64,000 nucleotides of DNA. Origin: an uncultured bacterium. GTDB lineage: Bacteria > Zixibacteria > MSB-5A5 > CAIYYT01. The position numbers and the translations under genes are program-made. Shown here piece after piece: positions 48,515 through 63,960 of the stretch (position 1 is its first letter; every line of letters begins with the position of its first letter). The notes beneath the pieces were generated by a model that did no database searches, was not told where the DNA came from, and saw only the letters and a list, made by a program, of their open reading frames with translations. Where the stretch lies: contig CAVSCK010000003.1 of assembly GCA_963726455.1 (NCBI GenBank), positions 480,001 to 544,000 of the forward strand, given 5' to 3'.

Positions 48515-51343
48515 CTACTTCTTCTTTGGTTTGTCGTCCTTCCCTGCCTGACGTTCCCTGATCGCAATTTGCGCAGCCGCCAGACGAGCAATCGGAACTC
48601 GGAAAGGTGAACACGATACGTAATTCAGTCCCGTACGATGGCAGAAACCGATTGAATCGGGATCGCCGCCGTGCTCACCGCAGATACCGGTTTTGAGATT
48701 CGGCTTGACCGATCGCCCTTTGTCCACAGCCATTTTGATAAGTTGACCGACACCTGCTTGGTCAATCGTAACAAACGGGTCACGCGACAGGATGCCTTTT
48801 TCGTAATAATACCTGAGGAATTTGCCGGCATCGTCGCGCGAGAATCCCATCGTCATCTGCGTCAAATCGTTGGTGCCAAAACTGAAGAAATCGGCCTCCT
48901 GCGCGATCTCGTCCGCAGTCAGCGCCGCTCGTGGAATCTCGATCATCGTGCCAACCAAGTACGGAATCTCGAACTTGTACTTGCGAGTCATCTGTTCCCC
49001 GATCCGCACGATAATTTCTTTCTGGTTGGCCAACTCGGCTCGTTGTCCCACCAAGGGCACCATGATTTCCGGGAAGACGCGTTTGCCGTCTCTCATCAGC
49101 TCTGCCGCGGCCATGAAGATCGCCTTAACCTGCATCTCAGTAATCTCGGGATAGGTGATGCCAAGCCGGCAGCCACGGTGGCCAAGCATCGGGTTCTGTT
49201 CGTGCAGACTGTCGATACGGTCAAGAATCTTTCTCAGGCGGCCGATATCCTCCGATTTTTCGTTTGCAGTCTCGGCGTCCTGAATCTGCTTCAGAACGTC
49301 CTCGCGTTTGGGAAGAAACTCGTGCAGCGGCGGATCGAGCGTTCTGATCGTCACCGGCAGACCTTCCATCGCTTCGAAGATCGCTTTGAAGTCTGCTTTC
49401 TGGAACGGCAGGAGCTTGTCCAGCGACGCCTGACGTTCATCTTGCGTGGTTGCCAGAATCATCGCCTGAATGTGCGGTAGACGATTCTTGCCGAAAAACA
49501 TATGCTCGGTTCGGCAGAGCCCGATTCCTTCGGCGCCAAATTTACGCGCCAGTGCCGCATCACTCGGTGTATCGGCATTGGTGCGAATACCGATCGCGCG
49601 CACTTCGTCGGCCCAGGTCATGAACGTGCCAAATTCCCCGGAGAGTTCGGGGTCAATGGTCGGTACTTCGCCCAGCATGACTTCGCCGGTGGTGCCGTTG
49701 ATCGTGATGACTTCTTTGTCCTTTACCACCAGAGTTCCGATGGCAAATTGCCGGCGTGCCTCGTAAACGCGAACATCTTCGCAACCGGCCACGCACGGTT
49801 TGCCCATGCCGCGTGCAACCACGGCTGCGTGGGATGTCATACCACCGCGGGCGGTCAAAACGCCTTCGGCTGCAATCATGCCGGCGATGTCGTCCGGATT
49901 GGTTTCAGTTCGGACCAGGATGGTCTTCTCACCGCGTTCAGCCAGGCGAACGGCCTCATCGGCGTGAAATACAACTTTGCCGGACGCCGCTCCAGGTGAA
50001 GCCGACAGCCCGCGTGCAATCACTTCAACGTCGGCGTTGGGGTCGATACGTGGATGGAGAAGCTGATCGAGTTGCTCCGGCTGAATGCGCAGCAGCGCTT
50101 CGTCTTTGGTAATCAGCTTCTCGTGAACCATATCCACGGAAATCTTGACGGCGGCCTGCGCGGTGCGTTTGCCGGTGCGCGTCTGGAGCATGTACAACTT
50201 GTTCTCTTGAATCGTGAACTCAAAGTCCTGCACGTCGCGGTAGTGTTTTTCCAGTTTGCCGGTGATGTCTTTGAGTTGCTTATAGGCCTCCGGCATCACT
50301 TTCGCCAACTCAGTGATAGGTTGAGGCGTGCGAATACCCGCGACTACGTCCTCACCCTGCGCGTTAACCAGAAACTCGCCATAGAATTCCTTGTTGCCGT
50401 TGGAGGGATTGCGCGTGAAGCCAACACCGGTGGCCGACGAATCTCCCATATTGCCGAACACCATCGCCTGAATATTGACGGCGGTGCCCAGATCAGATGG
50501 AATGTGATTGGCGGCGCGATAGGTGATTGCCCGTGGCGAATTCCAACTGCGAAATACAGCATCGCGCGCCATCTGCAATTGCATCCAGGGATCAGTTGGA
50601 AACGGTTCGCCGGACTTGGCGGTGATCAGCTTCAGGAACTGCTTGACGATATCTTTCAGGTCGTCGATTGAAAGCGACGCGTCATGTTTGATCGAACGTT
50701 GTCTTTTCTTCTTGGTGATGATCTCCTCAAACTGATCTTTGTCAATACCAAGCACGACATTTCCGAACATGGAGATGAATCGGCGGTAGTTGTCATAAGC
50801 AAACCGAGGATTGTTGGTCTTGGCGATCAGTCCCTTCAAGGTCTCTTCATTTAGCCCGAGATTCAGGATCGTGTCCATCATTCCCGGCATCGAGAATTTG
50901 GCGCCCGATCGCACCGAAACCAGCAGTGGATTCTTGGCATCACCAAACCTGGCTCCCATCGCCTTTTCAAGATGCTCCATGATCTGCTTCATTTCGCGAT
51001 CAAACGTTTTCGGCAAAGACATCTTGTTGTCGTAGTAGAGACGACAAACTTCGGTGGAGATGGTGAATCCCGGTGGCACCGGAATTCCCAAATTAGTCAT
51101 CTCGGCGAGGCCGGCGCCTTTTCCTCCCAGCGTGTCTTTCATCGCACCATCACCTTCGGCCTTACCGCCGCCGAAAGAATAGAAGTATTTACCGCCGGGA
51201 AGCAGCGACGGCCTCTTCTTTTCGACCGGAAGTTCTTTGATTTGAACTCCGATTTTGCGGGGCTTCAAAGGTTTTGCGGCAATTGCTTTTGGTTTGGAGG
51301 CAACTTTCGGTTTACTCTTCGGCGTCACCTTTTTCTTTGCCAT
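48515..51343 (-). CDS. ppdK: Pyruvate, phosphate dikinase
   Basis: LGGKGAGLAEM, PLLVSVRSGA, GGMTSHAAVVARG (phospho-His), GIGLCRTEHM and GICGEHGG. Confidence 0.97.
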   Translation of the reverse strand: MAKKKVTPKSKPKVASKPKAIAAKPLKPRKIGVQIKELPVEKKRPSLLPGGKYFYSFGGGKAEGDGAMKDTLGGKGAGLAEMTNLGIPVPPGFTISTEVCRLYYDNKMSLPKTFDREMKQIMEHLEKAMGARFGDAKNPLLVSVRSGAKFSMPGMMDTILNLGLNEETLKGLIAKTNNPRFAYDNYRRFISMFGNVVLGIDKDQFEEIITKKKRQRSIKHDASLSIDDLKDIVKQFLKLITAKSGEPFPTDPWMQLQMARDAVFRSWNSPRAITYRAANHIPSDLGTAVNIQAMVFGNMGDSSATGVGFTRNPSNGNKEFYGEFLVNAQGEDVVAGIRTPQPITELAKVMPEAYKQLKDITGKLEKHYRDVQDFEFTIQENKLYMLQTRTGKRTAQAAVKISVDMVHEKLITKDEALLRIQPEQLDQLLHPRIDPNADVEVIARGLSASPGAASGKVVFHADEAVRLAERGEKTILVRTETNPDDIAGMIAAEGVLTARGGMTSHAAVVARGMGKPCVAGCEDVRVYEARRQFAIGTLVVKDKEVITINGTTGEVMLGEVPTIDPELSGEFGTFMTWADEVRAIGIRTNADTPSDAALARKFGAEGIGLCRTEHMFFGKNRLPHIQAMILATTQDERQASLDKLLPFQKADFKAIFEAMEGLPVTIRTLDPPLHEFLPKREDVLKQIQDAETANEKSEDIGRLRKILDRIDSLHEQNPMLGHRGCRLGITYPEITEMQVKAIFMAAAELMRDGKRVFPEIMVPLVGQRAELANQKEIIVRIGEQMTRKYKFEIPYLVGTMIEIPRAALTADEIAQEADFFSFGTNDLTQMTMGFSRDDAGKFLRYYYEKGILSRDPFVTIDQAGVGQLIKMAVDKGRSVKPNLKTGICGEHGGDPDSIGFCHRTGLNYVSCSPFRVPIARLAAAQIAIRERQAGKDDKPKKK

Positions 51344-51480: not shown

Positions 51481-51804
51481 TCACATGGTAAACATCTTCT
51501 CGCCAGCAATAATCTTTTGCAGCATTTTCAGAGTTTTTTCGGCCGGAGAGTGCATCAGATCGTGCGTGTTGTACGTCAAGCGCGCCGAATCACGCTTGAA
51601 TTCTAAGGCGTTTCTGCCCTTGGCTCCGGGGAGTCGTTGTTTCTTTTTGTGCAACAGATTGTACTGGCGCTGGTACTCCTTGGCCTTTTCGCGATGAGCC
51701 AGATAGTACTGGCGCTGATATTCCTGTCGCCTCCGCTTCGCCTCTTCAGGAGAGAGAGGCTCTTTACGCCTACGGCGCGTCTTTGTGAGGGTTATTTTTG
51801 CCAT
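51481..51804 (-). CDS. Small very basic hypothetical protein
   Basis: MAKITLTKTRRRRK...EYQRQY repeated twice; GGAAGG RBS; own promoter upstream. Confidence 0.65.
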   Translation of the reverse strand: MAKITLTKTRRRRKEPLSPEEAKRRRQEYQRQYYLAHREKAKEYQRQYNLLHKKKQRLPGAKGRNALEFKRDSARLTYNTHDLMHSPAEKTLKMLQKIIAGEKMFTM

Positions 51805-51894
51805 CCCCACCTTCCCTGGCATAAGGTTAATAACTCAACCAACTGAGAAGGCCACTCACCTCTTGCGGCTCCTCAAAAACTTCCTGTTGCAACT

Positions 51895-51923: not shown

Positions 51924-52024
51924 CAGTTTTTTTTGAAATCGGCACACTTTTTTTGTGGCTTTTTGGCACCCCATGTAAGCAGTTGTTGTAACAAGACTTC
52001 TGTAAGTCAAGAAAGCCAACTGGC

Positions 52025-52732
52025 CTAAGTGATCATCTTTATCCAGTCACGAATGTACTGTATCCTATAGATTAACAACGAGATACGCGCCATGACTGTG
52101 TATCCGAACGTCGCTCCGAATCCAATCATTAGAGTATAGATACCCAATTTGGCGGCTCCACCCCAAGCGCCCTTATGCGCCTTGGAGAAAAAGAAATATA
52201 TCAGCGACGACATGGTACCAACGATGACGACGACATCCCAAATCCCCTGCGGGACTCCAAGAAATCCAGCCGTACTCCAGTCGAATCCAAGCCCTATCGT
52301 CGTTCCGCGAAGCTGTGATAGCACGTTGTTCTTCATGGTAACGGGAATGGCAATACCGCTGGAGATACCCAGAAACAAGGCGAGCGGATAACGGCTTATC
52401 CAGGCATACTTTCTGGAAAATCGCGTCCACATTGCAATACCGAGCAGGGCAGGAATAATGTAGTAGAACTCATCGAATTTCGGCTTCCAGGTATTGTACT
52501 GCACTTTCGTGACCGGATCGACGGCAAAATCGAATAAGTGGCTAAGAAGATTGGGATTAATACCGTTGTAGTAAAGCAGAATGGCCCAGTAACCCACGGA
52601 GACACCCACTACCAAATGCTCCGCGAACTTATAGAAAGGATTGTCTTTGTATAGAAAAGAGAACAGGCAAAGCGTCAAGAAGACACCCACCGTTGTCCAA
52701 ATTATCGTGTCCGTGCTAAAAGTCTGTTCCAT
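52025..52732 (-). CDS. Cassette 3 subunit D: uncharacterised multi-TM protein
   Basis: FSFLYKDNPFYKFAE and YFFFSK.HKG...MIGFGATFGYTVMARISLL; paralog of D1 and D2. Confidence 0.85.
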   Translation of the reverse strand: MEQTFSTDTIIWTTVGVFLTLCLFSFLYKDNPFYKFAEHLVVGVSVGYWAILLYYNGINPNLLSHLFDFAVDPVTKVQYNTWKPKFDEFYYIIPALLGIAMWTRFSRKYAWISRYPLALFLGISSGIAIPVTMKNNVLSQLRGTTIGLGFDWSTAGFLGVPQGIWDVVVIVGTMSSLIYFFFSKAHKGAWGGAAKLGIYTLMIGFGATFGYTVMARISLLIYRIQYIRDWIKMIT

Positions 52733-53589
52733 TATTTACTCTCCTGTTTCGGAGCGCTCTTGCGTTTGCTGAGGAAGAAAGCCAGGTTCCCCATAATAAT
52801 GAAGATGATAATCACCACATGCGCGAATACCTGTACTTTCATCGCCTCGGTTGCCGTTCCGGGATTCTTGCAGAGAGTCTCATATTCTGCAGCCCCTTTC
52901 ATCCCGCCGATGATTCCGAATATCTGCTTCGATTGATAGTAGGGGTAGTAGTCGGCCGCCATAACACCGGTCATCGCCAGTGCGAGCTTCACGTTATAAC
53001 GAGCGTTTCCATCAGCGACCCACATGTCCGAGACGTTGCCTGCCGACAGATTAATGACGCCTTTGATGTTGTCATAATTCTTGATACCGCGCATCATGGG
53101 AATGGAGTCAAGGGTGGTACCGTAGTAATCTTGCGGAAAAGGAATACGGAAATTCATACCCATGCCGAGGATGATAATGCCGGGATAGGGTTTGTAGCCG
53201 AGGTAGACATAATCGATCCCACGTTCAGGCTTGAACCCGTGATAGACCAGGCAGGAATCCGCCACGTCCCTTACGATTTCTTCGGCCATCTGAGCACCGG
53301 TCTGTGACAATGTGAGAGTGATTACCTTAAGTTTCTTGGCGTAGCACTGCTCCAGCATGGCATAGGCCACCGGGTTTAGTTCCGCCAATGAACCCGGATC
53401 GTAATCCAATGAGAGCAGGATATAGTCGCCCGGTTTCAGGGCTTCAATGAAGTCGTAGATTTCCCTGACTTCCTTGACCGGAGTCAGTGGAACAGTAAAT
53501 GGAATAAACAGTGGAGTGATAACAAAAACCAGTAACACCGCAAAAACCCAGCGGCGATCGAGAGCCAAAAGTCGGTCGTGAAATGTCAT
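52732..53589 (-). CDS. Cassette 3 subunit C: TM - soluble alpha/beta domain - TM
   Basis: DRR.VF, DYDP...EL.P, DYVYLGY, YPY and GIIGGMKGAAEYE...HVVII.FII.GN. Confidence 0.85.
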   Translation of the reverse strand: MTFHDRLLALDRRWVFAVLLVFVITPLFIPFTVPLTPVKEVREIYDFIEALKPGDYILLSLDYDPGSLAELNPVAYAMLEQCYAKKLKVITLTLSQTGAQMAEEIVRDVADSCLVYHGFKPERGIDYVYLGYKPYPGIIILGMGMNFRIPFPQDYYGTTLDSIPMMRGIKNYDNIKGVINLSAGNVSDMWVADGNARYNVKLALAMTGVMAADYYPYYQSKQIFGIIGGMKGAAEYETLCKNPGTATEAMKVQVFAHVVIIIFIIMGNLAFFLSKRKSAPKQESK

Positions 53590-53601
53590 GCCATTCTCCT
53601 C

Positions 53602-54237
53602 TCAATCCTTGCCCAGGTATGAACGTTCAATACCCAGCACAATCTTTAGCGCGGTGGCAACCCCGCCCAGACCGACACCGATGAGGATTGCGCGTTTCGC
53701 GGCCAAATTCGGCACCATTAACATCCAACTACCCACCTGGTTGATCGGATCAGCGAGCGGTCCCGTCGGTATTACTCGCATCATCAACAGGAGAGCCGCG
53801 ACGAGCAATACCGTCGAGACAGCTGAACGGGCGCGAAAAGCGCGGTATGATGCCGAGGCGATATAGAACGCGAGCAATGCGAAGATGGTCGCCTGTATCG
53901 GGATGAAGATGTTGCTGTAAAGCAGGCGGAAGATCGTGCCGTTGAGACCGTTAAAGACCTGGGACCCCTTGATCGTAAGTCCAAAGACAATCATCGCAAA
54001 CATCGAGACCAGGACTACCACACTGTATTGCCAATCTTCGGAACGGCGCTTTATCTTGTAATAGCCGACGTGAATTTGCGACCAGATACCGAGTACCATC
54101 GCAAAAATACCGATTACCGTTAGCCCGTCTAAAGCCACTTCATAGAAGCGTAGCGATGGTTCGGACGGAACAAAGTACTGAATGGCCAGCAACACACCGA
54201 AAACGAAAACCAATATTAATGGAATCTGTTGTTTCAT
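53602..54237 (-). CDS. Cassette 3 subunit B: uncharacterised multi-TM protein
   Basis: MKQQIPL and FALLAFYIASASYRAFRAR...PN.AAKRAILIG...LGIERSYL; start moved to ATG 54237 after GGAGG. Confidence 0.85.
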   Translation of the reverse strand: MKQQIPLILVFVFGVLLAIQYFVPSEPSLRFYEVALDGLTVIGIFAMVLGIWSQIHVGYYKIKRRSEDWQYSVVVLVSMFAMIVFGLTIKGSQVFNGLNGTIFRLLYSNIFIPIQATIFALLAFYIASASYRAFRARSAVSTVLLVAALLLMMRVIPTGPLADPINQVGSWMLMVPNLAAKRAILIGVGLGGVATALKIVLGIERSYLGKD

Positions 54238-54247
54238 GCCAACCTCC

Positions 54248-55495
54248 TCACCACCAGGGCGCGTCAAAGGGTTTACTGAGGAAATCTGCTCCAGTGAATA
54301 CCCGGAGAGCGAGAAGGACAACCATGCCGGCAAGCACGATGGCTTTGAGATAGTCTTGCGCTTTCAGCGTTCCGAGTAGCAGGGGCTCCCGGCCGAGATA
54401 GGCACTAGCAGCATACAGTTCCTCACCCAGCAGAGTATAGTCGCAAGCGACCACAAAGAAAGGCAGCTGCGAGACCTGGTCCGTGCCCGCGATTTGGATC
54501 GAACCGGCAAGGACTCCCGTTTCCGCCAGCAACAGCGATTCGGCGGCGAAATAACCGAGATAAATGTTGGTCGCCGGTTTTTCCCGGAGAATCGTTCCAT
54601 TGACTGCGGCGACGTACGGGAACTGCTGACTGGTCACGTAGTAGACGGAGTCTTCTTTGTAAGTGTCGGGCCGTCCCGCATCGGCATAGCCTGTCTTCAC
54701 GGTCTCCTGCGCAATGGTCATTACGACGGGATCACAGCAAGGGACAATCATCGAAGTCTGGTATTCTGCCACTTTGCGCGCCACGCGACCGAGCACGGTA
54801 AACGAGGCGATCGTGGCAATGTCTCCGGCGGTTCCAATTCCTAACACGTACAGGATCGGTTTGCCCATTTCGGTGGCACGACCGATAGCTTCATCAATGG
54901 CTTCGATACCCGCCAGCGGGCGCACATAAAGATCGATGCCCTTCTTGGCCATGTTGATTAATTTGACGGTCAGAATCAAGAAGATGATGCAGAAGAGTAG
55001 CTCCGGCATCTTCATAGAGTTGAACCAGTTGTCGTAGGCCTGTACGGGTCCGCCCGCTGCCGGTGCGCTCTTTCCGCCCGGGCCAACGGCATAGACGCGA
55101 TAGTACAGATTCGTGTTCTTCGGCAAATATTCGGGACTTGTCTTATCGCGGTTCCCTTTGTCCGCATAACTGGAATTTCCCAGAACGACTGTCCCCGCTT
55201 TCAGCCACGCCGAATCGGGAGCGTCGGGTGAAGTCGCGCGATAAATGTCATAACTGATCACGTTCTTCTTACCAGCGCCGTCATCAGGTGACAGGGTCCA
55301 TTTCACCTGGACACCATGGCCGTCATCGTTGGGAAGATCTTTTAGAGTTACATTAGAGGGCGGCGCGGGCGGTTCCGACGGGATCACCGCCGTTTCAGCG
55401 GGAGGGTCGGAGGTCGCCGTCTGCGCCAATATTGCCTGAGTAAGGCAAAGTGACATACAGATCAGGAGGAACAATATCAGATGTTTCACTTCCAC
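54248..55495 (-). CDS. Cassette 3 subunit A: signal peptide - FN3 - TM - conserved domain (DUF6754-like by recollection) - TM
   Basis: DLPNDDG FN3; R.LAGIEAIDEAIGRATEMG; PFFVVACDYTLLGEELYAASAYL. Confidence 0.85.
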   Translation of the reverse strand: MEVKHLILFLLICMSLCLTQAILAQTATSDPPAETAVIPSEPPAPPSNVTLKDLPNDDGHGVQVKWTLSPDDGAGKKNVISYDIYRATSPDAPDSAWLKAGTVVLGNSSYADKGNRDKTSPEYLPKNTNLYYRVYAVGPGGKSAPAAGGPVQAYDNWFNSMKMPELLFCIIFLILTVKLINMAKKGIDLYVRPLAGIEAIDEAIGRATEMGKPILYVLGIGTAGDIATIASFTVLGRVARKVAEYQTSMIVPCCDPVVMTIAQETVKTGYADAGRPDTYKEDSVYYVTSQQFPYVAAVNGTILREKPATNIYLGYFAAESLLLAETGVLAGSIQIAGTDQVSQLPFFVVACDYTLLGEELYAASAYLGREPLLLGTLKAQDYLKAIVLAGMVVLLALRVFTGADFLSKPFDAPWW

Positions 55496-55517
55496 CTCGC
55501 GTGGCTTAAGGATTTTG

Positions 55518-56336
55518 TCACAATATATTCAACCAGTCTCCGAAGAGAAAGGTAATTCTTCCCACCAGCAGCGAAATGCGCCCCATTACCGTGTATCCAA
55601 ACGACGCACCGAAGGTGATCATCAGAATCCAGATTCCGATTCGCGACGCGACACCAAAGGCGCCTTTGTGTTCTTTCGAGAAGAAGAAGTAGATCAGTCC
55701 GCACATCACGCCGACAAAGATTACCCAGTTAGTCAGGATAGCTATGAACTGTCCATCGGCGGCCAGCGACACATGGCTGATGAAATCGCCCACTCCTTTC
55801 CAGTCAACAAAGAGCGGAATGAATGAGTTGGCGACCTGACTGATAAAATCGGAACGGAGATAGCGAGTCAAGTTAAGGCCGGCGGTGGCGCCGATAATGA
55901 ATGCCAACGACCAACGCGACATCCAACCGACTTTGGGCATCAATCGCATCAGCAAAATCAAACCAAATATGATTGGTATGTAGATTAGGACGTGATCCGC
56001 CTGCGCCTGATATGGCACTTTGAAAAATTCCGACAGGGTCTGGGACGCGCGCGGCACGAAGTTGCCTACGACGGTACTCCAGAAGCCGTAGCACATCCAA
56101 TAGCCGGCTGAGATGCCGACGTACAGACTTTCTGCAAACTTGTAGAATGGATTGTCGCGATAGAGAAATGAGAATATTGATAGCGTCAGAAACACCGCGA
56201 AAGTGATCAGGAAGCCGTCGCGGATATTCATGAATTGTGATTCTGAAGTGCCACTGCTTGATTTGGTGATCCAGCTAATGACGAATACCAAAGCCACTAA
56301 GGCCATCACGATTCTGCCGGCGGTCTTCATGTTCAT
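55518..56336 (-). CDS. Cassette 2 subunit D
   Basis: FSFLYRDNPFYKFAE and YFFFSKEHKG...MITFGASFGYTVMGRISLL; extra N-terminal TM. Confidence 0.85.
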   Translation of the reverse strand: MNMKTAGRIVMALVALVFVISWITKSSSGTSESQFMNIRDGFLITFAVFLTLSIFSFLYRDNPFYKFAESLYVGISAGYWMCYGFWSTVVGNFVPRASQTLSEFFKVPYQAQADHVLIYIPIIFGLILLMRLMPKVGWMSRWSLAFIIGATAGLNLTRYLRSDFISQVANSFIPLFVDWKGVGDFISHVSLAADGQFIAILTNWVIFVGVMCGLIYFFFSKEHKGAFGVASRIGIWILMITFGASFGYTVMGRISLLVGRITFLFGDWLNIL

Positions 56337-57241
56337 AATTTACCGCCCTTTTTGCGTGATCTGAAATAAGCCACATTACCAATTACTATGAATGCGATGA
56401 TAACCACGTGAGCCATGGTCTGCGGCCCCATCATGCGCAGAGCGGGCATCGGCTTCTTTTCGAAGCGTGGATAGGTCTTGAGCAGTTGTGATTCATACTC
56501 CGCGGCGCCCTTGGTTCCACCAAGCAAGCCCACGAGCTGTCGGGGCCAATAAGGGTACAGAAGCGGAGTTGAGACCGCCGCCGAGCCGCCTGCCGTCGGC
56601 ACCTTGCCCGGATCGCCCGCAAACAGCACCCATTCCTTCACACCTGGTTTACCGCCGCCAACGGAAATCAGCAAATCCATATCCTTGAGCGACTGGACAT
56701 CCTTGAACATCGGCAGCGAATCGAGCGAATTGCCATAGGCGTCAGAGGGAAACATCTTGCGGAAATTCGTAATGACAACATTAAGTACGCCCTCGTTGCC
56801 GGCTTTGTACCCGAGATTGCAGTAGTCTACCCCGTACTTGGCATCGGGAAAATCCGGTTTGAGAACCTGGTCCAGACTCAACCTAAGCAATGACTGCCCG
56901 GTTGCCCAAAGTGACATAAAGTAGAGTCGGTGCTTCTTTTCGAGAATGTGCCTGATAAAAGCATCGGTCATCGGCTGAACTTCCGGTGCCATGGCGGGAT
57001 CGAAGTCGTAAGACAGCACAATTTTCGATCCGGGCGGCAGACTCTCGATCTTGTCGAACACATTCTTCACGATCGGAGTTGCGACTTCGCCGAATTCAAG
57101 TCGGAAAATGATCGCCAGCGCCACCGTCAGTCCGACGAACAAGTACACAATACGCCGGTCAACATCGCGGCCTTTAATGGACAGGTAGAGAATCCAAAGC
57201 AGCCCGCCACCGATAACGATAATCGAAACTATCAGACCCAT
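56333..57241 (-). CDS. Cassette 2 subunit C
   Basis: DRRIVY, DFDP...EVQP, DYCNLGY, YPY and GLLGGTKGAAEYE; start moved to ATG 57241, 1 nt after the B2 stop. Confidence 0.85.
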   Translation of the reverse strand: MGLIVSIIVIGGGLLWILYLSIKGRDVDRRIVYLFVGLTVALAIIFRLEFGEVATPIVKNVFDKIESLPPGSKIVLSYDFDPAMAPEVQPMTDAFIRHILEKKHRLYFMSLWATGQSLLRLSLDQVLKPDFPDAKYGVDYCNLGYKAGNEGVLNVVITNFRKMFPSDAYGNSLDSLPMFKDVQSLKDMDLLISVGGGKPGVKEWVLFAGDPGKVPTAGGSAAVSTPLLYPYWPRQLVGLLGGTKGAAEYESQLLKTYPRFEKKPMPALRMMGPQTMAHVVIIAFIVIGNVAYFRSRKKGGKL

Positions 57242-57242
57242 C

Positions 57243-57917
57243 TCAACTATCCCCTCCCAGGTAGCTGCGCTCAATGCCCAGTAGCAGGCGTAGCGACATC
57301 GAAATTACCCCCAGCGAGATTCCAATCATGATGGCACGTTGTCCGGCCAGGTTAGGGGCATTCATAATCCAAATTGCCAGATTGGGAATTTGCAGCACCG
57401 AGAGCTGATCCGGCACCCAATTTGTCAAGAGCACGCCCAGTGCCGTTCTCCCTAACAAAATTATGAACGCGGCAACAAGAAGTATCGTGGCTTCGGTATT
57501 CTTGGCACGGAATGCCCGATACGATGCGGACGCGACAAAGAAAGCCAGCAGCGCGTACATCGTCGAATTCAGCGGCGACATGACGTATTGGAATAGAAGC
57601 TGGAAGTAAGAGCCCGTTTGCGAAAGATCGCCTGAGATACCCCCGGAATTGCCAAGCTTGAACAGCCCGGTCGCCAGCATCAGACCAAAGCCAAATAGAG
57701 TAACGATTGAATAGCCCCAGTCCTCTGATTTGCGGCTGATCTTTTCGGTATGAACGCGAATGAGGTTGCCACCACCAAGGAAGAACGCGAATACGGCGAT
57801 TATGTCGAAATAGAGTGAAGCATCTTCCTGCAAGTATTTGGCCGAAGGCACAAACACCGACACGACCAGCAGTGTGCCGACCGCGGAGAGAATAAGCATG
57901 GGAATCTGGCGTTTCAC
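57243..57917 (-). CDS. Cassette 2 subunit B
   Basis: MKRQIP and ALLAFFVASASYRAFRAKN...PNLAGQRAIMIG...LGIERSYL. Confidence 0.85.
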   Translation of the reverse strand: MKRQIPMLILSAVGTLLVVSVFVPSAKYLQEDASLYFDIIAVFAFFLGGGNLIRVHTEKISRKSEDWGYSIVTLFGFGLMLATGLFKLGNSGGISGDLSQTGSYFQLLFQYVMSPLNSTMYALLAFFVASASYRAFRAKNTEATILLVAAFIILLGRTALGVLLTNWVPDQLSVLQIPNLAIWIMNAPNLAGQRAIMIGISLGVISMSLRLLLGIERSYLGGDS

Positions 57918-57932
57918 TGTCTTGTCTTACTC

Positions 57933-59201
57933 CTAGCCCGTCGAGAACATCTCACGCAGCACTTTTTCAACCCAAACCATGGAACCCCATCCCCAGGCGC
58001 TGGCAATAGTTGTGGCAATCACGCCGACCAATATCACGATCATGGCAATGGCTTTGCCGACATCCTGCCCTTTGAGCGAGCCCATTTGGCGCGGTTCTTC
58101 CGAAAGATAAGCCGATGCGGCAAACAGTTCTTCGCCGATCAATGTGTAATCACAGGCAGCGACAAAGAAAGGCAACTGCGCTGGCATGGCGGTTCCGGCG
58201 ATTTGAATCGCACCTATTGAGTTACCGGTTTCGGCCATAATCAGCGATTCGGCGAAAAACGCCCCCAGGAAGAAACAGGCCGCGGGTTTTTCGCGTACCA
58301 TGATGCCGTCAACGGCCGCAACAAATCCGAACTGCTCGTCGGTGACATAATGAACCATGTCATCGTTATAGGCATCCGGCCGACCGGCAGTCACATAGGC
58401 CTGCTTGATCGTCTCGCGCGCGGCAGTCATCACCAGCGACGCACGCACCGGCATATTGATCTTGGTGTCGTACTCCGCCACGGTGCGGGCGATTCTTCCC
58501 AGAATCGTCAGTCCCGCAATCGTCTGCACATCGTCCATATCCTGAATACCGGCAACGAAGAGAATCGGGCGCCCCATCTCGGTTGCGCGACCGACGGCTT
58601 CATCAATGGCCTCCAAGCCGGCGATGCGGCGCAGAAATAATTTTGTGCCTCGCTTAGCGCTTTCGATAAACAGAATCACCGCGCCGCAGAAAATGACGCC
58701 GATGATCAACACCCAGGCCAACCGCGTATCGAACCACTGCTTCTCAGATTGAGCGGGCGCCGAAGGTTCGGAGGTTACCTTGTTGTTGTTGACCAGGGCG
58801 GCAACAGTGTAAGTATAGCTGCTGTCATCGGATGTATTTCTATCTTCGTAGGAACGGGTCGCAAATGGAGCAACGTCGATCGAGTCGATCTTATTGGAGA
58901 TGACGTTCGTGCGCCGGATTTCGAAGCCCCGGAAATTGTCGAGCTTTTCGTAACCGGGATCCTTCCATTCGACAGTGATCGAACCACCGGCATCGTTGTC
59001 GGTATCGAAGGCCTTGACAGTTACGGCGCCTAGATTGGGAATGGTCTGAACGGGCGTTGACGGCAGCAACGGCTTAAGTGTGTCACTCGTCGGCGTCGCA
59101 CTTTCGACCGCGAGTAGACAACCACTCAAAGAAATGAATAGTACCGTAACCAGGAGAAATATGAGGGCATCAAGCTTCGCAATGCGAAGGGGTGCTGTCA
59201 T
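57933..59201 (-). CDS. Cassette 2 subunit A (FN3 + DUF6754-like)
   Basis: DTDNDAG FN3; RRIAGLEAIDEAVGRATEMG; PFFVAACDYTLIGEELFAASAYL. Confidence 0.85.
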   Translation of the reverse strand: MTAPLRIAKLDALIFLLVTVLFISLSGCLLAVESATPTSDTLKPLLPSTPVQTIPNLGAVTVKAFDTDNDAGGSITVEWKDPGYEKLDNFRGFEIRRTNVISNKIDSIDVAPFATRSYEDRNTSDDSSYTYTVAALVNNNKVTSEPSAPAQSEKQWFDTRLAWVLIIGVIFCGAVILFIESAKRGTKLFLRRIAGLEAIDEAVGRATEMGRPILFVAGIQDMDDVQTIAGLTILGRIARTVAEYDTKINMPVRASLVMTAARETIKQAYVTAGRPDAYNDDMVHYVTDEQFGFVAAVDGIMVREKPAACFFLGAFFAESLIMAETGNSIGAIQIAGTAMPAQLPFFVAACDYTLIGEELFAASAYLSEEPRQMGSLKGQDVGKAIAMIVILVGVIATTIASAWGWGSMVWVEKVLREMFSTG

Positions 59202-59207
59202 AAAATG

Positions 59208-59864
59208 CTATTTAACCAGTTTCAGCCAGTCGGTGAGCAAGAAATCAATTCGTCCCAACAGGAGCGACATACGGCTCATGACCGTGTATCCGAATGACGC
59301 GCCGAAGGTGATCATCAAGAACCAAGTGCCGACTTTGGCGGCTCCGCCAAAAAGGCCCTTGTGCTCTTTCGAGAAGTAGAAATAGATAAGACCCGTGATC
59401 GTACCGATTACAATCACAAATCGTCCAATAATTTCGTAGCTGTTCCCCGACGCGACTGCTGCGACCGTGTCGACGACCGTCCCGTGGACCTGAGCCACGG
59501 CATTGGTTGAGAAGTAGGTCATCATTCTCAAACCGACCGTGGCACCGACGATGAACGCCAGCGGCCAGCGCGCAATCCAGCCCGCCTTGCCGATAAGGCG
59601 AGTGAGAAGCATTACGCCGAGGATGATACCGCCAATAAACCAATAATCCGGGTCAGGGAGACCCTGAGCGTCTAGATGATTAATACCACTGACGATCGGT
59701 CGATACAGACTATCCCAGAAATAAGTAATGAACCAGAATCCGGCAGAAATTCCGATGAATATCGCCTCGGAGACCTTATAGAAAATATTGTCCCGATACA
59801 GGAATGAGACAATTCCGAGGGTCAAGAGAGCAGCGAGCCAGATGCCAATCAATGTGCTGTCCAT
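59208..59864 (-). CDS. Cassette 1 subunit D (true start MDSTL at 59864; the ORF-track fusion is an artefact)
   Basis: SFLYRDNIFYKVSE and YFYFSKEHKG...MITFGASFGYTVMSRMSLL; GAAGGG RBS. Confidence 0.85.
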   Translation of the reverse strand: MDSTLIGIWLAALLTLGIVSFLYRDNIFYKVSEAIFIGISAGFWFITYFWDSLYRPIVSGINHLDAQGLPDPDYWFIGGIILGVMLLTRLIGKAGWIARWPLAFIVGATVGLRMMTYFSTNAVAQVHGTVVDTVAAVASGNSYEIIGRFVIVIGTITGLIYFYFSKEHKGLFGGAAKVGTWFLMITFGASFGYTVMSRMSLLLGRIDFLLTDWLKLVK

Positions 59865-59875
59865 CGGATTCCCTT

Positions 59876-60860
59876 CTATTCCCTTACTTCCTTGCGTTTG
59901 CCAAGGAAGAGTGCCACGTTGCCGATGATAATAAAGGCAATCACTACGATATGAGAAAAGGACTGGGCGAGTATGTAAGTTGTTGCTTTCGCCTATCTCG
60001 CCGGTTGCCATTTCAAATTCGGCTGCGCCCGTCATACCACCCGCGAGCCCTTTTAGTTTTCCTGAACTCAGGTAGGGATACACCGACGGCGCTTGAACAG
60101 CGGTGTTGCCGGCGCCAAGATCCTTGCCAAAACGATCGACGGCAATCTGCACCCATTCGACAGTGCCCGGATAGCCGGCGGAGAAATTGATTACGTAATC
60201 AATGTTGCTGAAATTTTCTACTCCTTTGAGCAAAGGAATGCTGTCATACAGAGTGTTGTAAATGTCACGCGGGAAAGGATCGCGGAATGATCTCCCCATA
60301 CGCTGAACCAGAAATTCGTTGCCCGATTGGAATCCGAGATTGACGTAATCAGTCCCGTACTTCAGATTCATCTTCTTTACTTCCGGTTCCTCCAGGGCTC
60401 TGACCACCGACATATTGGCCTGCTGAGGTCCCTGAGGCCACAAACCCATGATAATAACCTTCAGGCCATGCTTGAACGCGTATTTCATAAATGCATCAGC
60501 CATCGGTTGCAGTTCCGGCGCTGAAGGGGGATCATAATCAAATGCCGCCAAGACTTTCGAACCGGGCTCGAGCTTGGTAATCGCGTCGTAAAGCAATTGA
60601 ACTTCGGGAGAAATCTTCACCGGCGGGCGGAAACTCATGAAGAATGGAAGTGTCAGTGAAACGGCGATAAAGACAAACACTGTGCGCCTGCCAACCGGTC
60701 TACCTATGATAGTCAGTATGAGCATGCCGACAAGGGCAAGGAACAACAAGACCGTTACGACAACTGAAACGGATGATGAGAAAGAAAGGGGCTTGGGGAG
60801 CACGATAATCAAGATCAGTAATCCAAGCAGCACGAACCAAGGGGTATACTTCTTCATCAT
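59876..60860 (-). pseudogene. Cassette 1 subunit C, frameshifted near 59990 (likely sequencing error)
   Basis: DYDP..ELQP, DYVNLGF, YPY and GLAGGMTGAAEFE. Removing one base near 59990 gives KATTYILAQSFSHIVVIAFIIIGNVALFLGKRKEVRE*, matching the C2/C3 C-termini. Confidence 0.85.
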
Positions 60861-61531
60861 CAGCCTTCCAGATGTGACCTTTCAATACCGAGCATGATTC
60901 GGAGCGCCGTCGATGCCGTGCCAAGAGCAATGCCTATCATGACTGCGCGCTGCCCTGCGGTCTGGGGAAATGCCATCAGCCAATTAGAGAGATCGGAGAG
61001 TCGATAACCCTCTGGCATGAATCCCGTTAGTAAGTCACCGACAGGCACCCTGCCTATCATCACAAAGAAAGCCGCAAGCAACAGCAGTGTCGCTTGCAGG
61101 TTCCGGGCTCGGAAAGCTCGATAAGAAGCCGAAGCCACGAAGAACGCCAAGATCGCGAACATCGTTGACGAAAGCGGCGTATAGACGTATTGATACATCC
61201 AGTCAAAATGGGTTCCTGGATCGCGGAATGAGCCGGGCGGATTCATCCCCAGACCTTTGAAGCCGTCATAGGCGCCGACGGCAACCATAATAAGGAAACA
61301 AACGATAATTATGAGTGAGATCGGCCAATCCTTCGCCTTTCGGGAGATATTGAACAACTGAATCTTCAAGAGACTGAGTGCCCCTAACCAAACAGCGAAC
61401 GCGCCTGCCATGGCGAACCAGAGATTGAAAATCTGTTCTGATCGGCTGAAGGGATCATGAGGGATAAAATATGAAACAAGGAATACGAGTCCGGCGACGA
61501 ATGTGATGATTAAGGGTACTTCGCGTTTCAT
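60860..61531 (-). CDS. Cassette 1 subunit B
   Basis: MKREVPL and FAILAFFVASASYRAFRARN...PQTAGQRAVMIG...LGIERSHL. Confidence 0.85.
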   Translation of the reverse strand: MKREVPLIITFVAGLVFLVSYFIPHDPFSRSEQIFNLWFAMAGAFAVWLGALSLLKIQLFNISRKAKDWPISLIIIVCFLIMVAVGAYDGFKGLGMNPPGSFRDPGTHFDWMYQYVYTPLSSTMFAILAFFVASASYRAFRARNLQATLLLLAAFFVMIGRVPVGDLLTGFMPEGYRLSDLSNWLMAFPQTAGQRAVMIGIALGTASTALRIMLGIERSHLEG

Positions 61532-61549
61532 ATCTATAAACTCAATTGA

Positions 61550-62767
61550 CTAACTTATCTTCAAGAGTAAATCTGCCAGATTGATATTGAATATCGCCAG
61601 AATAAGCAGCACTACAATCGCCAGCATGAAAAGGCCCTTCGCAAAGTCCTGTCCCTTAAGCGAACCCAAGAGTCGAGGTTCTCTCTCGAGATAGGCGCTT
61701 GCCGCAAACAGCTCTTCTCCAATCAGTGTGTAATCGCAAGCAGCCACAAAGAACGGAATCTGCGCCGGCTGGTTGGTACCGGCAATCTGAATAGCACCGG
61801 CTTCGTTTCCGGTCTCTACCAAAATCAGTGACTCAGCAAAGAACCCCCCCAGATAGAACATGGTAGCCGGTTTCTGGCGCATGACCATGCCGTCGATCGC
61901 CGCCGCATACCCAAACTGGTCATCGGTGACGTAGTGCACCATGTCTTCCTTGAAGGCATCAGGCTTGCCGACTTTGCTGTAGGCTTCTCTGACCGCCTCT
62001 TTGGCCGTCATCATCACGAGTGACTTGGATACAGGTACGTCGAGCTGAGTTTCGTTCTGAGCACAGATACGCGCAACGCGACCCAGGATCGTGATGGCAG
62101 CAATAGTGGCAACGTCATCCAAGTCCTGAATGCCCGGGACGAAAAAGACCTTGCGACCCATTTCCGTCGCCCGGCCGATGGCATCGTCTACAGCATCAAT
62201 GCCGGCGATTTTGCGGACATAGAGCTCTTTGCCGGACTTGGCCTGATAGATATAAAACAAAATCGCAATGGAGACCACGATCGTCCAAATCAAGATGTTC
62301 ATCCGGCGCATATTGAACCACTGCGCGATTGGCTTCACCGGCCCAACTGTCTCCGATTCACTCCTGCCCGCCACCACGGTACTGTCTGCCTTGTTCAGGT
62401 CACTGACCGCAGCAATCCTGTAATAATAACTCGAATCCATGGTTACGTTGTTATCAGTAAATGCGTTTTGCCCTTTCGTGGTCTCACCGACGACTACGAA
62501 CGGTCCGCCTGTCGATGTTGAACGCAGGACCTGATATTTGGTCACTAATCGCTGATCATCCGCCGAAAGCTGCCAACTGACGTCCAGAGCCGAGCCATTG
62601 TCATTCGGCGTGTCTTCGGCAACGACGTTGGTTGGTGGCGCCGGATTCTCAGTTGTGACTTGAACGGATTTAGCTGAATCGACAGGAGTATTTGTCTGAG
62701 AGAAGATCGGGGTGCAGAGCAGGAGAATTACTGCGATCAAGAAGACGGATATTCTGAGACGCCGCAT
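61550..62767 (-). CDS. Cassette 1 subunit A (FN3 + DUF6754-like)
   Basis: DTPNDNG FN3; RKIAGIDAVDDAIGRATEMG; PFFVAACDYTLIGEELFAASAYL. Confidence 0.85.
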   Translation of the reverse strand: MRRLRISVFLIAVILLLCTPIFSQTNTPVDSAKSVQVTTENPAPPTNVVAEDTPNDNGSALDVSWQLSADDQRLVTKYQVLRSTSTGGPFVVVGETTKGQNAFTDNNVTMDSSYYYRIAAVSDLNKADSTVVAGRSESETVGPVKPIAQWFNMRRMNILIWTIVVSIAILFYIYQAKSGKELYVRKIAGIDAVDDAIGRATEMGRKVFFVPGIQDLDDVATIAAITILGRVARICAQNETQLDVPVSKSLVMMTAKEAVREAYSKVGKPDAFKEDMVHYVTDDQFGYAAAIDGMVMRQKPATMFYLGGFFAESLILVETGNEAGAIQIAGTNQPAQIPFFVAACDYTLIGEELFAASAYLEREPRLLGSLKGQDFAKGLFMLAIVVLLILAIFNINLADLLLKIS

Positions 62768-62919: not shown

Positions 62920-62951
62920 GGACAAAATGCTCTGGCGGGCCCGCCGCAACT

Positions 62952-63033: not shown

Positions 63034-63960
63034 CTAGTAGCCGAGTAATTTCAGATGCTCCTTGTAAGTTGCAGCCGATTTCTGCAGGGCTGACAACTCC
63101 TTCTGCTCCAGCTTCATTTCCACGATCTTCTCGACACCAGTCTGTCCGAGAACCACCGGCACGCCGATGTACATGTCATTGATGCCATACTGGCCGGTCA
63201 GGAACGCGGAGCAGGGATACAGCTTCTTCTTGTCGTTCAGCACCGAGTCGACCATTGCCACGGTAGCAGCAGCAGGTGCATAATATGCGGAACCGGTCTT
63301 TAGCAGGGCGACGATTTCACCACCGCCGTTGATCGTACGCTGACTGATCGCTTCGATCCGATCAGGAGCCATAAGTTCCGTAATCGGCACTCCAGCCGCT
63401 GTAGTGTAGCGCGGCAACGGCACCATCGTGTCGCCGTGACCACCCAGAACCATCGCCTCGGTCTCGGTCTGCGCTATTCCCAGCTCCATCCCAATGAATG
63501 TCCGGAAGCGGATCGAGTCCAGGATACCGGCCTGACCAAACACGCGATTGGCCGGAAAACCGGAGACTTTGTAGGCATGGAACGTCATCAGGTCAAGCGG
63601 ATTGGCGACCATCAGAATTATCGCGTGGGAGGCGAACTCCTTGACTTTCTGCGCCACCGAGCCAATGATCTCCGCGTTCTTGGTCAACAGATCTTCGCGC
63701 GACATTCCCGGTTTGCGAGCCAAGCCGGCGGTATGAACCACTATGTCCGAACCGCGCATATCCGCAAAGTCATTTGAACCCTTGATTGTGACATCATACC
63801 CGCGAATCGGCCCCGCCTGCATCAGGTCGAGCGCCTTCCCCTGCGGCATTCCTTCGACGACGTCGATCAACATGATGTCGCAAAGATTGCCCTCGGCCAG
63901 ATACTGTGCAACCGCTGCACCGACATTTCCGGCCCCGATTACCGTTACTTTTCTACGCAT
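63034..63960 (-). CDS. mdh: Malate dehydrogenase (LDH-like)
   Basis: GAGNVG, GKALDL, ARKPGMSREDL (Arg specificity residue), LDSIRF, LGGHGD and GGGEIV.LLKTGSAYYAP. Confidence 0.96.
   Translation of the reverse strand: MRRKVTVIGAGNVGAAVAQYLAEGNLCDIMLIDVVEGMPQGKALDLMQAGPIRGYDVTIKGSNDFADMRGSDIVVHTAGLARKPGMSREDLLTKNAEIIGSVAQKVKEFASHAIILMVANPLDLMTFHAYKVSGFPANRVFGQAGILDSIRFRTFIGMELGIAQTETEAMVLGGHGDTMVPLPRYTTAAGVPITELMAPDRIEAISQRTINGGGEIVALLKTGSAYYAPAAATVAMVDSVLNDKKKLYPCSAFLTGQYGINDMYIGVPVVLGQTGVEKIVEMKLEQKELSALQKSAATYKEHLKLLGY

Follow-up and report, generated by a model that had tools for sequence, protein, structure and literature searches.

Three diverged copies of a conserved four-gene membrane cassette in an uncultured Zixibacteria genome, a gene unit linked in related loci to a putative GlmL/MutL-type ATPase

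The window analyzed here is a stretch of 64,000 nucleotides from an uncultured bacterium of the Zixibacteria. Its minus strand carries, from 62767 to 52025, three co-oriented cassettes of four genes in the order A-B-C-D. Neighboring cassette genes in the ORF listing were spaced by -4 to +22 nt, indicating tight coupling. An earlier note on this DNA had described twelve co-oriented genes with gaps of at most about 20 nt; the common orientation held, while the number of ORFs listed is 11.

The first cassette opens with A1 (61550..62767, 405 aa), which encodes a signal peptide, an FN3 domain, a transmembrane (TM) helix, a DUF6754 domain, and a second TM helix. It is followed by B1 (60860..61531, 223 aa), with about six TM helices by hydropathy and a match to the B-family HMM, and by C1 (59876..60860), which combines at least one N-terminal TM helix, a Rossmann-like domain, and a C-terminal TM helix. 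DNA alignment with the intact ortholog of the closest relative, L001, revealed one extra base in C1 at about 59987-59990, and three-frame translation located its C-terminal TM helix in another frame. As a result of this 1-nt insertion, C1 runs into the frame of D1 to give a single 550-aa ORF (59208-60860), which explains the count of 11 ORFs instead of 12. The multi-TM protein D1 (59208..59864), assigned by blastp to D2 and D3, comprises 218 aa from an ATG at 59864 with aaggga just before it.

The second cassette contains A2 (57933..59201, 422 aa), B2 (57243..57917, 224 aa; B-family HMM and hydropathy), C2 (56333..57241, 302 aa from its ATG, with an alternative TTG start at 57274), and D2 (55518..56336, 272 aa). 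The third contains A3 (54248..55495, 415 aa), B3 (53602..54237, 211 aa), C3 (52732..53589, 285 aa), and D3 (52025..52732, 235 aa). B3 was counted from its ATG, since translation from the listed TTG at 54333 would extend the gene into A3. C2, D2, B3, and D3 were identified from their ORFs and hydropathy.

Downstream of the cassettes, on the same strand, lie a small and very basic ORF (51481..51822, 113 aa) with no Pfam match, which follows the cassettes in this clade (16 loci), and a gene assigned by Pfam to pyruvate phosphate dikinase (48515..51343), kept in this position in 17 loci. Upstream, again on the minus strand, Pfam identified a malate/lactate dehydrogenase (63034..63960), which among the loci occupies this position only in L001 besides the window. 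The single upstream promoter proposed earlier was not borne out, as a sigma-70 consensus scan of the minus strand came up empty from 62768 to 63033. Six terminator-like sites fall within the cassette run, and such sites were no commoner than in shuffled sequence (8 on both strands vs 12.9 +/- 3.6 expected).

All three A proteins matched the full Pfam model PF20539 (DUF6754), with 391, 423, and 373 bits for A1, A2, and A3 against a cut-off of 27 (E values 2.5e-117, 4.1e-127, and 6.5e-112) and alignments spanning profile positions 2-3 to 249-252 of 257. The resemblance named in the earlier note was thus verified at E values of 1e-112 to 1e-127. NCBI names relatives of A either 'DUF6754 domain-containing protein' or 'fibronectin type III domain-containing protein'. 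An AF2 model of A3 (pLDDT 92.5) consisted of a signal peptide, FN3, TM, a Rossmann-like domain, and TM. The N-terminal part is an FN3 domain: the A profile matched FN3 chains, titin among them, across residues about 37-148 (lowest E value 1.9e-35), and Foldseek matched the A model to titin FN3 at a target TM-score of 0.77-0.80. The Pfam FN3 model was absent from the three A proteins of the window at E <= 0.1; PF00041 was present in some relatives. Elsewhere in the family, A proteins have beta-propellers at the N-terminus or additional FN3 domains. The outward-facing domain types include FN3, beta-propeller, and RHS, and in L035 the A protein ends, beyond TM2, in an SppA protease domain. Because of its signal peptide, the N-terminus of A is expected to be exported, with which the beta-propeller, FN3, and SppA fusions agree; this topology would place FN3 in the periplasm and DUF6754 in the cytoplasm. 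The DUF6754 domain contains 41 invariant columns across 117 sequences, and its many invariant acidic residues include E209, E319, E325, D352, E358, and E359.

B, C, and D had no match at cut-off in Pfam or NCBIfam, and PDB profile searches gave best E values of 0.11 for C and 0.38 for B, and no match for D. In keeping with the uncharacterized complex described in the earlier note, no subunit matched a characterized transporter or enzyme family, and no transporter signature was detected in any of them with Pfam, NCBIfam, or PDB profiles. One source names a long relative of B 'ECF transporter S component', a name that NCBIfam did not reproduce. The AF2 model of C3 (pLDDT 95.0, pTM 0.88) consisted of a TM helix (12-28), a Rossmann-like alpha/beta domain (39-239), and a second TM segment (245-278), and Foldseek returned only generic Rossmann matches for it (TM-score <= 0.31). 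C2 has one more N-terminal TM helix than C3. Invariant R12 and R13 precede TM1 of C and a basic tail follows TM2; the positive-inside rule, the one basis for this placement, predicts that the Rossmann-like domain of C is periplasmic. In B, S128 and R132 are invariant and R135 nearly so, while D retains N31, E38, R114, H186, and R216. B and D had no detectable kinship to each other (hhalign probability 0.2).

The three cassettes are strongly diverged. Between window paralogs, blastp identities were 44-45% for A, 36-42% for B, 33-36% for C, and 35-44% for D, and the DNA repeat (period 3.5-3.7 kb) reached 60-83% identity in its most conserved segments only. The copies are therefore old, as the note had proposed. 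Of the motifs it quoted, D.PND.G, GRATEMG, ACDYTL.GEEL.AASAYL, and D(Y/F)DP were found in the translations, whereas GG.KGAAEYE occurs in C2 and C3 but reads GGMTGAAEFE in C1. Divergence was unevenly distributed: the cytoplasmic domain of A was 59-65% identical between paralogs, its FN3 domain 21-36%, and the domain of C 31.5%. Since the periplasmic face appears to have diversified while the cytoplasmic face was kept, each of the three copies would most likely have its own external substrate or partner. This outward/cytoplasmic contrast is the sole observation that speaks for different ligands per copy.

With the A profile we fetched 76 related loci; they come from the 80 top-ranked of at least 635 confirmed matches, with similarity to A2 setting the rank. 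In 65 of these loci A, B, C, and D follow one another at least once in this order on one strand, and in 9 of the other 11 a contig end cuts in or less than 1.5 kb is available downstream. A, B, C, and D are a real conserved gene unit, and the synteny that had been suggested for check extends over about ten phyla. By record titles these are Zixiibacteriota, 'Ignavibacteria' bins, Planctomycetota, Acidobacteriota, Gemmatimonadota, Myxococcota, Eiseniibacteriota, Fermentibacterota, Cloacimonadota, and Fidelibacterota; longer forms of A extend the range to Eremiobacterota, Armatimonadota, and Vulcanimicrobiota. Genes flanking the cassettes vary between phyla and indicate no pathway, and no conserved regulator gene was found near the cassettes among the related loci.

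Cassettes were also inherited as wholes. Four cassette types (T1-T4) defined on the A tree of 83 cassettes could be mapped onto every one of the A, B, C, and D trees with no more than the minimum of three changes, compared to about 42 for shuffled type labels (minimum 33-35; 500 shuffles per tree). This congruence on all four subunit trees supports co-evolution of the cassettes as units. In the window, the A1, A2, and A3 cassettes belong to T1, T2, and T3, respectively, with T2 being the type common to the single-copy cassettes of other phyla. Multiple tandem cassettes occurred only in Zixibacteria-like bins among the 76 loci. C and D also occur naturally as one protein: of the 150 top-scoring D-family representatives (2792 in all), three (P0140, P0141, and P0186) are C-D fusions in which the C profile is complete.

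One or more of three genes for soluble proteins, which we call G, E, and F, lie beside the cassette in 33 of the 76 loci; of the 52 loci in which 3.5 kb or more precedes the first A, 25 contain E or F. The arrangement is either a co-directional G-E-F-A-B-C-D run or a divergent placement just upstream of the cassette. In the run, F and A overlap or are separated by only a few nt, as seen in at least nine loci that are distant in phylogeny. E is a putative ASKHA ATPase of the GlmL/MutL type (PF13941, E value about 1e-125), scoring 420-436 bits over its full length in nine loci and 303-348 bits in two more where it is truncated or fused. It falls below the NCBIfam cut-offs for accessory_GlmL (238 vs 475 bits) and glmL_fam (178 vs 204 bits). 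F has a barrel-sandwich-hybrid domain (L068 F vs RnfC_N, 28.9 bits, cut-off 25.6) and shares one ORF with E in L044; G is a small protein. No hydrophobic segment was found in E, F, or G. No locus carried more than one E-F set, even beside two to four cassettes. The genes were not found in the window, which stops 1.2 kb upstream of A1, nor in the 6.3 kb upstream and 4.1 kb downstream available for L001. The remaining 27 of those 52 loci likewise show no E or F nearby, and they include all Gemmatimonadota, Myxococcota, and Eiseniibacteriota loci seen, so the membrane complex may work alone or E and F may be encoded elsewhere. The earlier statement that no ATPase is present thus holds within the window but not beyond it.

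Our data suggest, with a probability that we put at roughly 40%, that A-B-C-D is an inner-membrane complex whose paralogous copies act as outward-facing specificity modules and are probably powered or controlled by an ATPase module that they share. The four proteins would be subunits of one complex with about 16 TM helices, in which B and D would form a polytopic core, each side of the membrane would carry one Rossmann-like domain, and A would add a variable outward-facing domain. T1, T2, and T3 would be ancient whole-cassette paralogs that varied on the periplasmic side while their cytoplasmic side was conserved. As a single E-F-G set accompanies one to four cassettes, it may serve them all by docking onto the conserved DUF6754 face, from where it would drive or gate movement of something across the membrane.

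We consider it unlikely that A-B-C-D is instead a self-contained secondary transporter or channel, moving a solute or ion by the membrane potential, with a tethered binding domain on C, a regulatory domain on A, and E, F, and G accessory or unrelated. The lack of E and F nearby in the window and in the 27 loci above would fit such a device, as would small, polytopic B and D with invariant polar or charged residues, and in the model both ends of the putative periplasmic domain of C are membrane-anchored, as in a tethered binding domain. However, no transporter family matched in Pfam, NCBIfam, or the PDB, the near-overlap of F and A in distant loci argues for one operon with one function, and the conservation of DUF6754 exceeds that usual for a regulatory appendage.

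It is similarly improbable that the cassette encodes a membrane enzyme or envelope-biogenesis complex. On that reading, DUF6754 would be a HAD-like/Rossmannoid domain with a catalytic or lipid-binding role, working on a lipid or a precursor linked to one, while the substrate would be held by B and D and the product handled on the outer side by C and FN3. Among about 50 of at least 500 Foldseek matches for A that were shown, the single one outside FN3 was to the HAD-like LNS2 domain of Nir2 in complex with phosphatidic acid (9jtz, E value 8.7e-07), but this is a weak match with a TM-score of just 0.20-0.34 and an rmsd of 24-25 A. Together with the generic Rossmann matches of C, it would suit an enzymatic or lipid-binding role no less than a complex served by an ATPase module. 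In the HAD Rossmannoid fold, strand 1 ends with D-x-D-x-[TV]. A 'DMDDV'-like acidic motif, resembling D-x-D-x-V, occurs in T1, T2, and T4 two to three residues past the strand, yet this QDMDD-like motif after GRATEMG is missing from all 23 T3 proteins, A3 included, and T3 was kept. The many invariant acidic residues of DUF6754 favor an enzyme, as do the FN3, beta-propeller, and RHS domains of A, for which polymer or protein binding is usual. Against it, no glycosyltransferase, polymerase, flippase, or acyltransferase model matched at cut-off in Pfam or NCBIfam, and the neighboring genes, varying by phylum, point to no pathway. A signaling or sensing complex, with variable outward domains that sense and a conserved cytoplasmic domain that signals to E and F, would suit this same pattern of variation and paralogs that differ chiefly on the outside. 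We regard it as the most improbable of these readings: kinase, cyclase, HAMP, PAS, and receiver domains are absent from all seven proteins, no regulator gene is conserved nearby, and four membrane subunits with about 16 helices far exceed what known sensors need.

Returning to a membrane complex served by a shared ATPase module, it is possible, if doubtful, that G-E-F and A-B-C-D represent an ancient and unrecognized class of membrane machine, powered by an ASKHA ATPase rather than an ABC, P-type, V/F-type, or AAA+ motor, in which one motor would serve several interchangeable membrane modules. If so, the system would be common in Planctomycetota, Acidobacteriota, Zixibacteria, Gemmatimonadota, Eremiobacterota, Armatimonadota, and other phyla that lack well-studied model organisms. 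A literature search for DUF6754, PF20539, PF13941, GlmL, and the system found no relevant paper, and this widespread bacterial system appears to be undescribed so far. The Pfam entry PF20539 presents a domain of unknown function and is silent on the partners B, C, and D, on tandem paralogy, and on a link to a GlmL-type ATPase.

Searches against several known systems gave no match. A2, B2, C2, D2, and L068 G, E, and F gave 0 matches to the anti-phage defense models of PADLOC at E <= 0.01, and no curated model of a characterized transporter family (ABC, ECF, TRAP, PTS, MFS, and others) matched B, C, or D at cut-off. Like Rnf/Nqr, the system combines a multi-subunit membrane complex with small six-helix subunits, a TM-anchored subunit with a predicted periplasmic domain, and, in loci outside the window, a soluble subunit (F) with an N-terminal barrel-sandwich-hybrid domain. 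However, that domain of F was the sole match: no Rnf or Nqr model in Pfam or NCBIfam matched A to D, the B and D profiles retrieved no NqrD/E or RnfA/E chain from the PDB, and no subunit matched a flavin or iron-sulfur family.

GlmL/MutL, the accessory protein of coenzyme-B12 glutamate mutase (PF13941, TIGR01319), is the nearest known counterpart of E from the related loci. GlmL naturally works with a partner that has a Rossmann-like subunit for cofactor binding, to which the predicted Rossmann-like cytoplasmic domain of A may be analogous. Compared to GlmL, E has about 125 additional C-terminal residues and no mutase genes near its loci, and its presumed partner is membrane-embedded. Group II ECF transporters and shared ABC ATPases use one energizing module to serve several specificity modules. 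Although no ABC ATPase, EcfT, or S-component model matched here, they offer an analogy for the occurrence of one G-E-F set per locus beside one to four paralogous membrane modules that differ most in their outward-facing parts.

The cassette's four membrane-protein genes (A, B, C and D) are encoded on the minus strand, running from 62767 down to 52025 in the ORF listing. Cassette 1 comprises A1 (61550-62767), B1 (60860-61531) and a single 550-aa ORF (59208-60860) joining C1 and D1. Cassette 2 comprises A2 (57933-59201), B2 (57243-57917), C2 (56333-57241) and D2 (55518-56336), and cassette 3 comprises A3 (54248-55495), B3 (53602-54237), C3 (52732-53589) and D3 (52025-52732). The strict order A-B-C-D, repeated three times, was as the earlier note described it; its count of twelve genes is one more than the eleven ORFs seen, C1 and D1 being joined. 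Using homolog-supported start codons, the spacing of adjacent genes was -4 to +22 nt. Paralogs shared 44-45% (A), 36-42% (B), 33-36% (C) and 35-44% (D) identity by blastp. In a DNA self-comparison only the most conserved segments aligned, at 60-83% identity and with a period of 3.5-3.7 kb. The identities of all four subunits and the repeat period bear out the proposal of three copies of one cassette, and the motifs quoted for these proteins were present. A sigma-70 scan of the minus strand upstream of A1 revealed no promoter-like site and so did not confirm the upstream promoter proposed for the run. Terminator-like sites within the run did not exceed those in shuffled sequences. No riboswitch or RNA leader was matched by Rfam in 51300-64000 (E <= 1), and no RNA family at gathering score in seven related loci.

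The joined ORF reflects a break in C1. Past '...AAEFEMATGEIG', the C-terminal TM helix of C1 is encoded in another frame. DNA alignment with the intact ortholog of L001, the nearest relative of the window locus, placed one additional base in the window at ~59987-59990. With the shifted frame included, C1 spans 59876-60860 (minus strand) and stops at 59876, 11 nt before the D1 ATG at 59864. As sequenced, C1 is missing the final TM helix and continues into D1 as a fusion. The extra base may reflect either a true mutation or an error of assembly. A second case of broken cassette genes was seen in the third cassette of locus L007 (13711-16710), where A and C each consist of two overlapping ORFs. 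Natural C-D fusions with a complete C part were found in 3 of the best 150 D-family representatives.

Sequence comparisons assigned a family to A alone. A1, A2 and A3 matched the whole Pfam model PF20539 (DUF6754; presumably IPR046642 in InterPro, a number that may be wrong) with E values of 1e-112 to 1e-127, confirming the family suggested for A in the earlier note. No Pfam or NCBIfam model matched B, C or D at cut-off, and NCBIfam release 20 held no model for A, B, C, D or for F and G, two soluble proteins encoded beside some related cassettes. Profiles of B, C and D, each built from 24-36 homologs, found nothing meaningful among PDB sequences. The A profile retrieved FN3 domains only (titin and others), which matched its N-terminal part. 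By hhalign, no homology was detected between A and C (probability 5) or between B and D (probability 0.2). In the ESM Atlas, D3 matched 'hypothetical' clusters only, and comparison of B2 with named clusters gave no usable match. PADLOC models did not match the system proteins.

AlphaFold2 models were obtained for A3 (117-sequence alignment; pLDDT 92.5) and C3 (114 sequences; pLDDT 95.0, pTM 0.88). The A3 model begins with a signal-peptide helix and a beta sandwich (47-151). A TM helix (160-184) leads into an alpha/beta domain with parallel strands (197-368), which is followed by a second TM helix (371-401). The C3 model consists of a three-layer alpha/beta domain (39-239) between TM helices at 12-28 and 245-278. 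Foldseek against the PDB was run with the whole A model, so that FN3 matches (TM, target, ~0.8) dominated the listing and crowded out the DUF6754 domain. The sole non-FN3 match listed was weak, to the HAD-like LNS2 domain of Nir2 (E 8.7e-07, TM 0.20-0.34). The C model yielded generic Rossmann-like matches only (eIF2B, GT-B, SDR; best E 1e-3, TM <= 0.31). Hydropathy indicated about six TM segments in B and several, weaker ones in D.

These features suggest an orientation for A and C. As a signal peptide and FN3 precede TM1 of A, the DUF6754 domain should be cytoplasmic and the C-terminus outside. In other A proteins the N-terminus bears beta-propeller, RHS or additional FN3 domains. A lone DUF6754 protein without B, C or D (L035:9959-12346) carries a signal peptide peptidase SppA (Peptidase_S49) domain after TM2; the same Zixibacteria chromosome holds two more cassette loci, L018 and L072. 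Both the N-terminal domains and the position of SppA fit this topology. In C, TM1 is directly preceded by invariant arginines and TM2 is followed by a basic tail; by the positive-inside rule, this would put the Rossmann-like domain on the periplasmic side. The signal peptide of A2 (57933-59201) ends in L-S-G-C, which we take to resemble a lipoprotein lipobox; those of A1 and A3 resemble ordinary signal peptides.

To delineate the range of the cassette, one genome per species was scanned with the A profile, giving at least 641 pattern matches, at least 635 of them confirmed. The 80 most similar to A2 were retained and make up 76 loci; the phyla among them are therefore a minimum and the proportions no census. 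Six-frame ORFs of these loci were searched with B, C and D HMMs derived from the window copies. A complete A-B-C-D run of the same order and strand was found in 65 of the 76, across many phyla, so the four-gene synteny is conserved. Nine of the other 11 lie at a contig edge or have <1.5 kb downstream, and L031 and L035 hold A alone. Tandem arrays of 2-4 cassettes occurred only in Zixibacteria-like bins (titled Zixiibacteriota, 'Ignavibacteria/les' or unclassified). Planctomycetota, Acidobacteriota, Gemmatimonadota, Myxococcota, Eiseniibacteriota, Fermentibacterota, Cloacimonadota and Fidelibacterota loci carried one cassette each. Overall, the A family has >8000 relatives at E <= 1e-10, and the D profile matched 2792 representative clusters (50% identity) at E <= 1e-3 and 640 at E <= 1e-30.

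FastTree trees of 83 cassettes, one per subunit, resolved four types on the A tree. T1 (23 cassettes), T2 (31) and T3 (23) include window cassettes 1, 2 and 3, respectively. Of the 17 single-copy cassettes found in other phyla or in unclassified bins, 13 fall in T2, as do the remaining four (Gemmatimonadota L025 and L054; unclassified L037 and L064); among those single cassettes only L053, L060 and L062 lie outside T2. T4 (6 cassettes) unites the third cassettes of L023, L051 and L052 with three single cassettes, those of L053 (Cloacimonadota), L060 (Fermentibacterota) and L062. On every one of the four subunit trees, the type labels could be explained by 3 changes, the fewest that four states allow; shuffled labels required ~42 (minimum 33-35; 500 shuffles per tree). 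This congruence, which answers the question whether the cassettes evolve as units, indicates that whole cassettes were duplicated, without later exchange of subunits between types, and that the duplications predate the split of the sampled Zixibacteria-like lineages.

Divergence between the window paralogs was uneven. The cytoplasmic domain of A is 59-65% identical, FN3 21-36% and the periplasmic domain of C 31.5%; at ~60% between paralogs, the cytoplasmic domain of A is conserved like core machinery. In T1, T2 and T4, an acidic 'QDMDD'-like motif comes after GRATEMG and the first strand; all 23 T3 A proteins lack it. Long subunit forms were also observed. The T3 B subunit reaches ~590 aa in L013 (15019-16797) and L014 (15238-17013); that of L013, the one scanned, carries FG-GAP repeats, presumably on the periplasmic side. 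Apart from FG-GAP, Pfam recognized only an EF-hand in one D insert among the domains fused to long D and B forms. Many Planctomycetaceae relatives of B are ~610 aa long, with an insert that has no Pfam match. The name 'ECF transporter S component', given to a long B relative by one source, was not reproduced by NCBIfam.

In 33 of the 76 loci, the cassette is adjoined by one or more genes of a soluble module, G, E and F. G (~115-185 aa) has no family match. E (~610-630 aa) matches PF13941 'MutL protein' (E ~1e-125), the GlmL/MutL accessory protein family of the ASKHA (actin/Hsp70/sugar-kinase) superfamily; it scored below NCBIfam cut-offs and had no PDB match by phmmer. The remark that no ATPase is visible therefore holds within the window and fails for related loci, where this gene stands beside cassettes. 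F (~375 aa) is strongly conserved (mean column identity 63%) and begins with a barrel-sandwich-hybrid domain (RnfC_N, 28.9 bits in L068); its profile found no relative in the PDB. No hydrophobic segment was detected in E, F or G. Two arrangements occur. In one, the order is G-E-F-A-B-C-D and F overlaps A or is separated from it by a few nt; in the other, a divergently oriented E-F pair lies immediately upstream of A. E and F form a single ORF in L044. An apparent F-A fusion in L067 was rejected, as its 801-aa 'A' ORF is over-extended and overlaps F in another frame.

E or F was present in 25 of the 52 loci having >=3.5 kb upstream of the first A. These included all Planctomycetota (8/8), Acidobacteriota (3/3) and Fermentibacterota (1/1) loci, 8 of the 17 with a Zixiibacteriota title and 3 of the 4 with an Ignavibacteriota title; among the 52, none was found in Gemmatimonadota, Myxococcota, Eiseniibacteriota or Cloacimonadota loci. 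No locus had more than one E-F set, even with 2-4 cassettes. G, E and F were seen neither in the window, which ends 1.2 kb upstream of A1, nor in the 21 kb around the L001 cassettes.

Flanking genes offered little guidance to function. A malate/lactate dehydrogenase gene precedes A1 and has the same position in L001 only. Downstream lie a small basic ORF of 113 aa (orf113; 51481-51822, minus strand; no Pfam match) and then pyruvate phosphate dikinase (PPDK). Zixibacteria-like loci share orf113 (16 loci) and PPDK (17 loci) downstream of the cassettes, with orf113 always between the last cassette and PPDK (e.g. L001:17443-17766). The orf113 proteins are rich in K, R and Q and 54-92% identical across loci; homology to G was rejected (hhalign probability 0.05). 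A sigma-70-like site (51923-51895; TTGACA, 17 nt spacer, TAAATT) lies directly upstream of orf113. No metabolic neighbour was conserved across phyla, and flanks vary by phylum outside the Zixibacteria-like clade. We read the PPDK linkage as inherited gene order and no functional clue.

Elsewhere in the window, a PAAR-motif protein (1073-2149, minus) precedes an ORF (3-1076, minus) that has a weak, sub-threshold OmpA-like match and is truncated at the window edge; the pair (3-2149) may belong to a locus related to type VI secretion or toxin delivery. A CoA-transferase family III ORF (23203-23892, plus) covers Pfam model positions 1-212 of 366 only and is followed by an overlapping ORF (23855-24397), so the gene may be split or frameshifted. 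A 1014-aa protein (37869-40913, minus) has many TPR repeats and, at its C-terminus, a CHAT protease-like domain.

Our data argue with high confidence that A-D form one heteromeric inner-membrane complex of four subunit families. They support an architecture in which either face of the membrane has one Rossmann-like domain and the complex displays a variable domain to the outside. We have moderate confidence that this membrane complex works with E and F, and low confidence that its function is transport. The interpretation we favor, an ATP-dependent machine, follows from two patterns: the outside of the complex is diversified and its inside conserved, and one ATPase-containing module accompanies several membrane modules. 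The GlmL-type ATPase would then be the motor of a translocation or assembly machine, within a shared energising or regulatory module serving several specificity modules. We give this interpretation a probability of about 0.4.

Three rival explanations were considered. Cassettes lacking a neighbouring E or F, as in L001, are what a self-contained secondary transporter would show; with the ATPase module beside cassettes in other loci, we regard this as unlikely. A membrane enzyme with a HAD-like cytoplasmic domain, the fold class of the LNS2 match to A, seems similarly improbable, that match being weak. A sensor would also have a variable exterior and a conserved interior, and is the explanation to which we give least credence.

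The system appears to be undescribed. Searches by name or accession (DUF6754, PF20539, PF13941) found no paper. Among the papers listed on GlmL and GlmL/ASKHA, titles and abstract openings showed nothing relevant, nor did the matches listed for system keywords in Zixibacteria and Planctomycetes contexts. B, C and D lack any Pfam or NCBIfam model, A belongs to a DUF, and the family spans about a dozen phyla dominant in soils, sediments and oceans. If the link to the ASKHA ATPase is functional, it would represent a new way to couple ATP to a membrane process. Regardless of that link, the seven proteins, two of them confidently modelled, are a defined structural target, Planctomycetota isolates carry the system, B relatives having been seen in Planctomicrobium isolates, and thousands of 'hypothetical' genes could gain annotation. 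For the favored ATP-dependent machine, the diversified exterior over a conserved interior and the single E-F set per several cassettes would, by analogy, both match systems in which a shared module serves several specificity modules.
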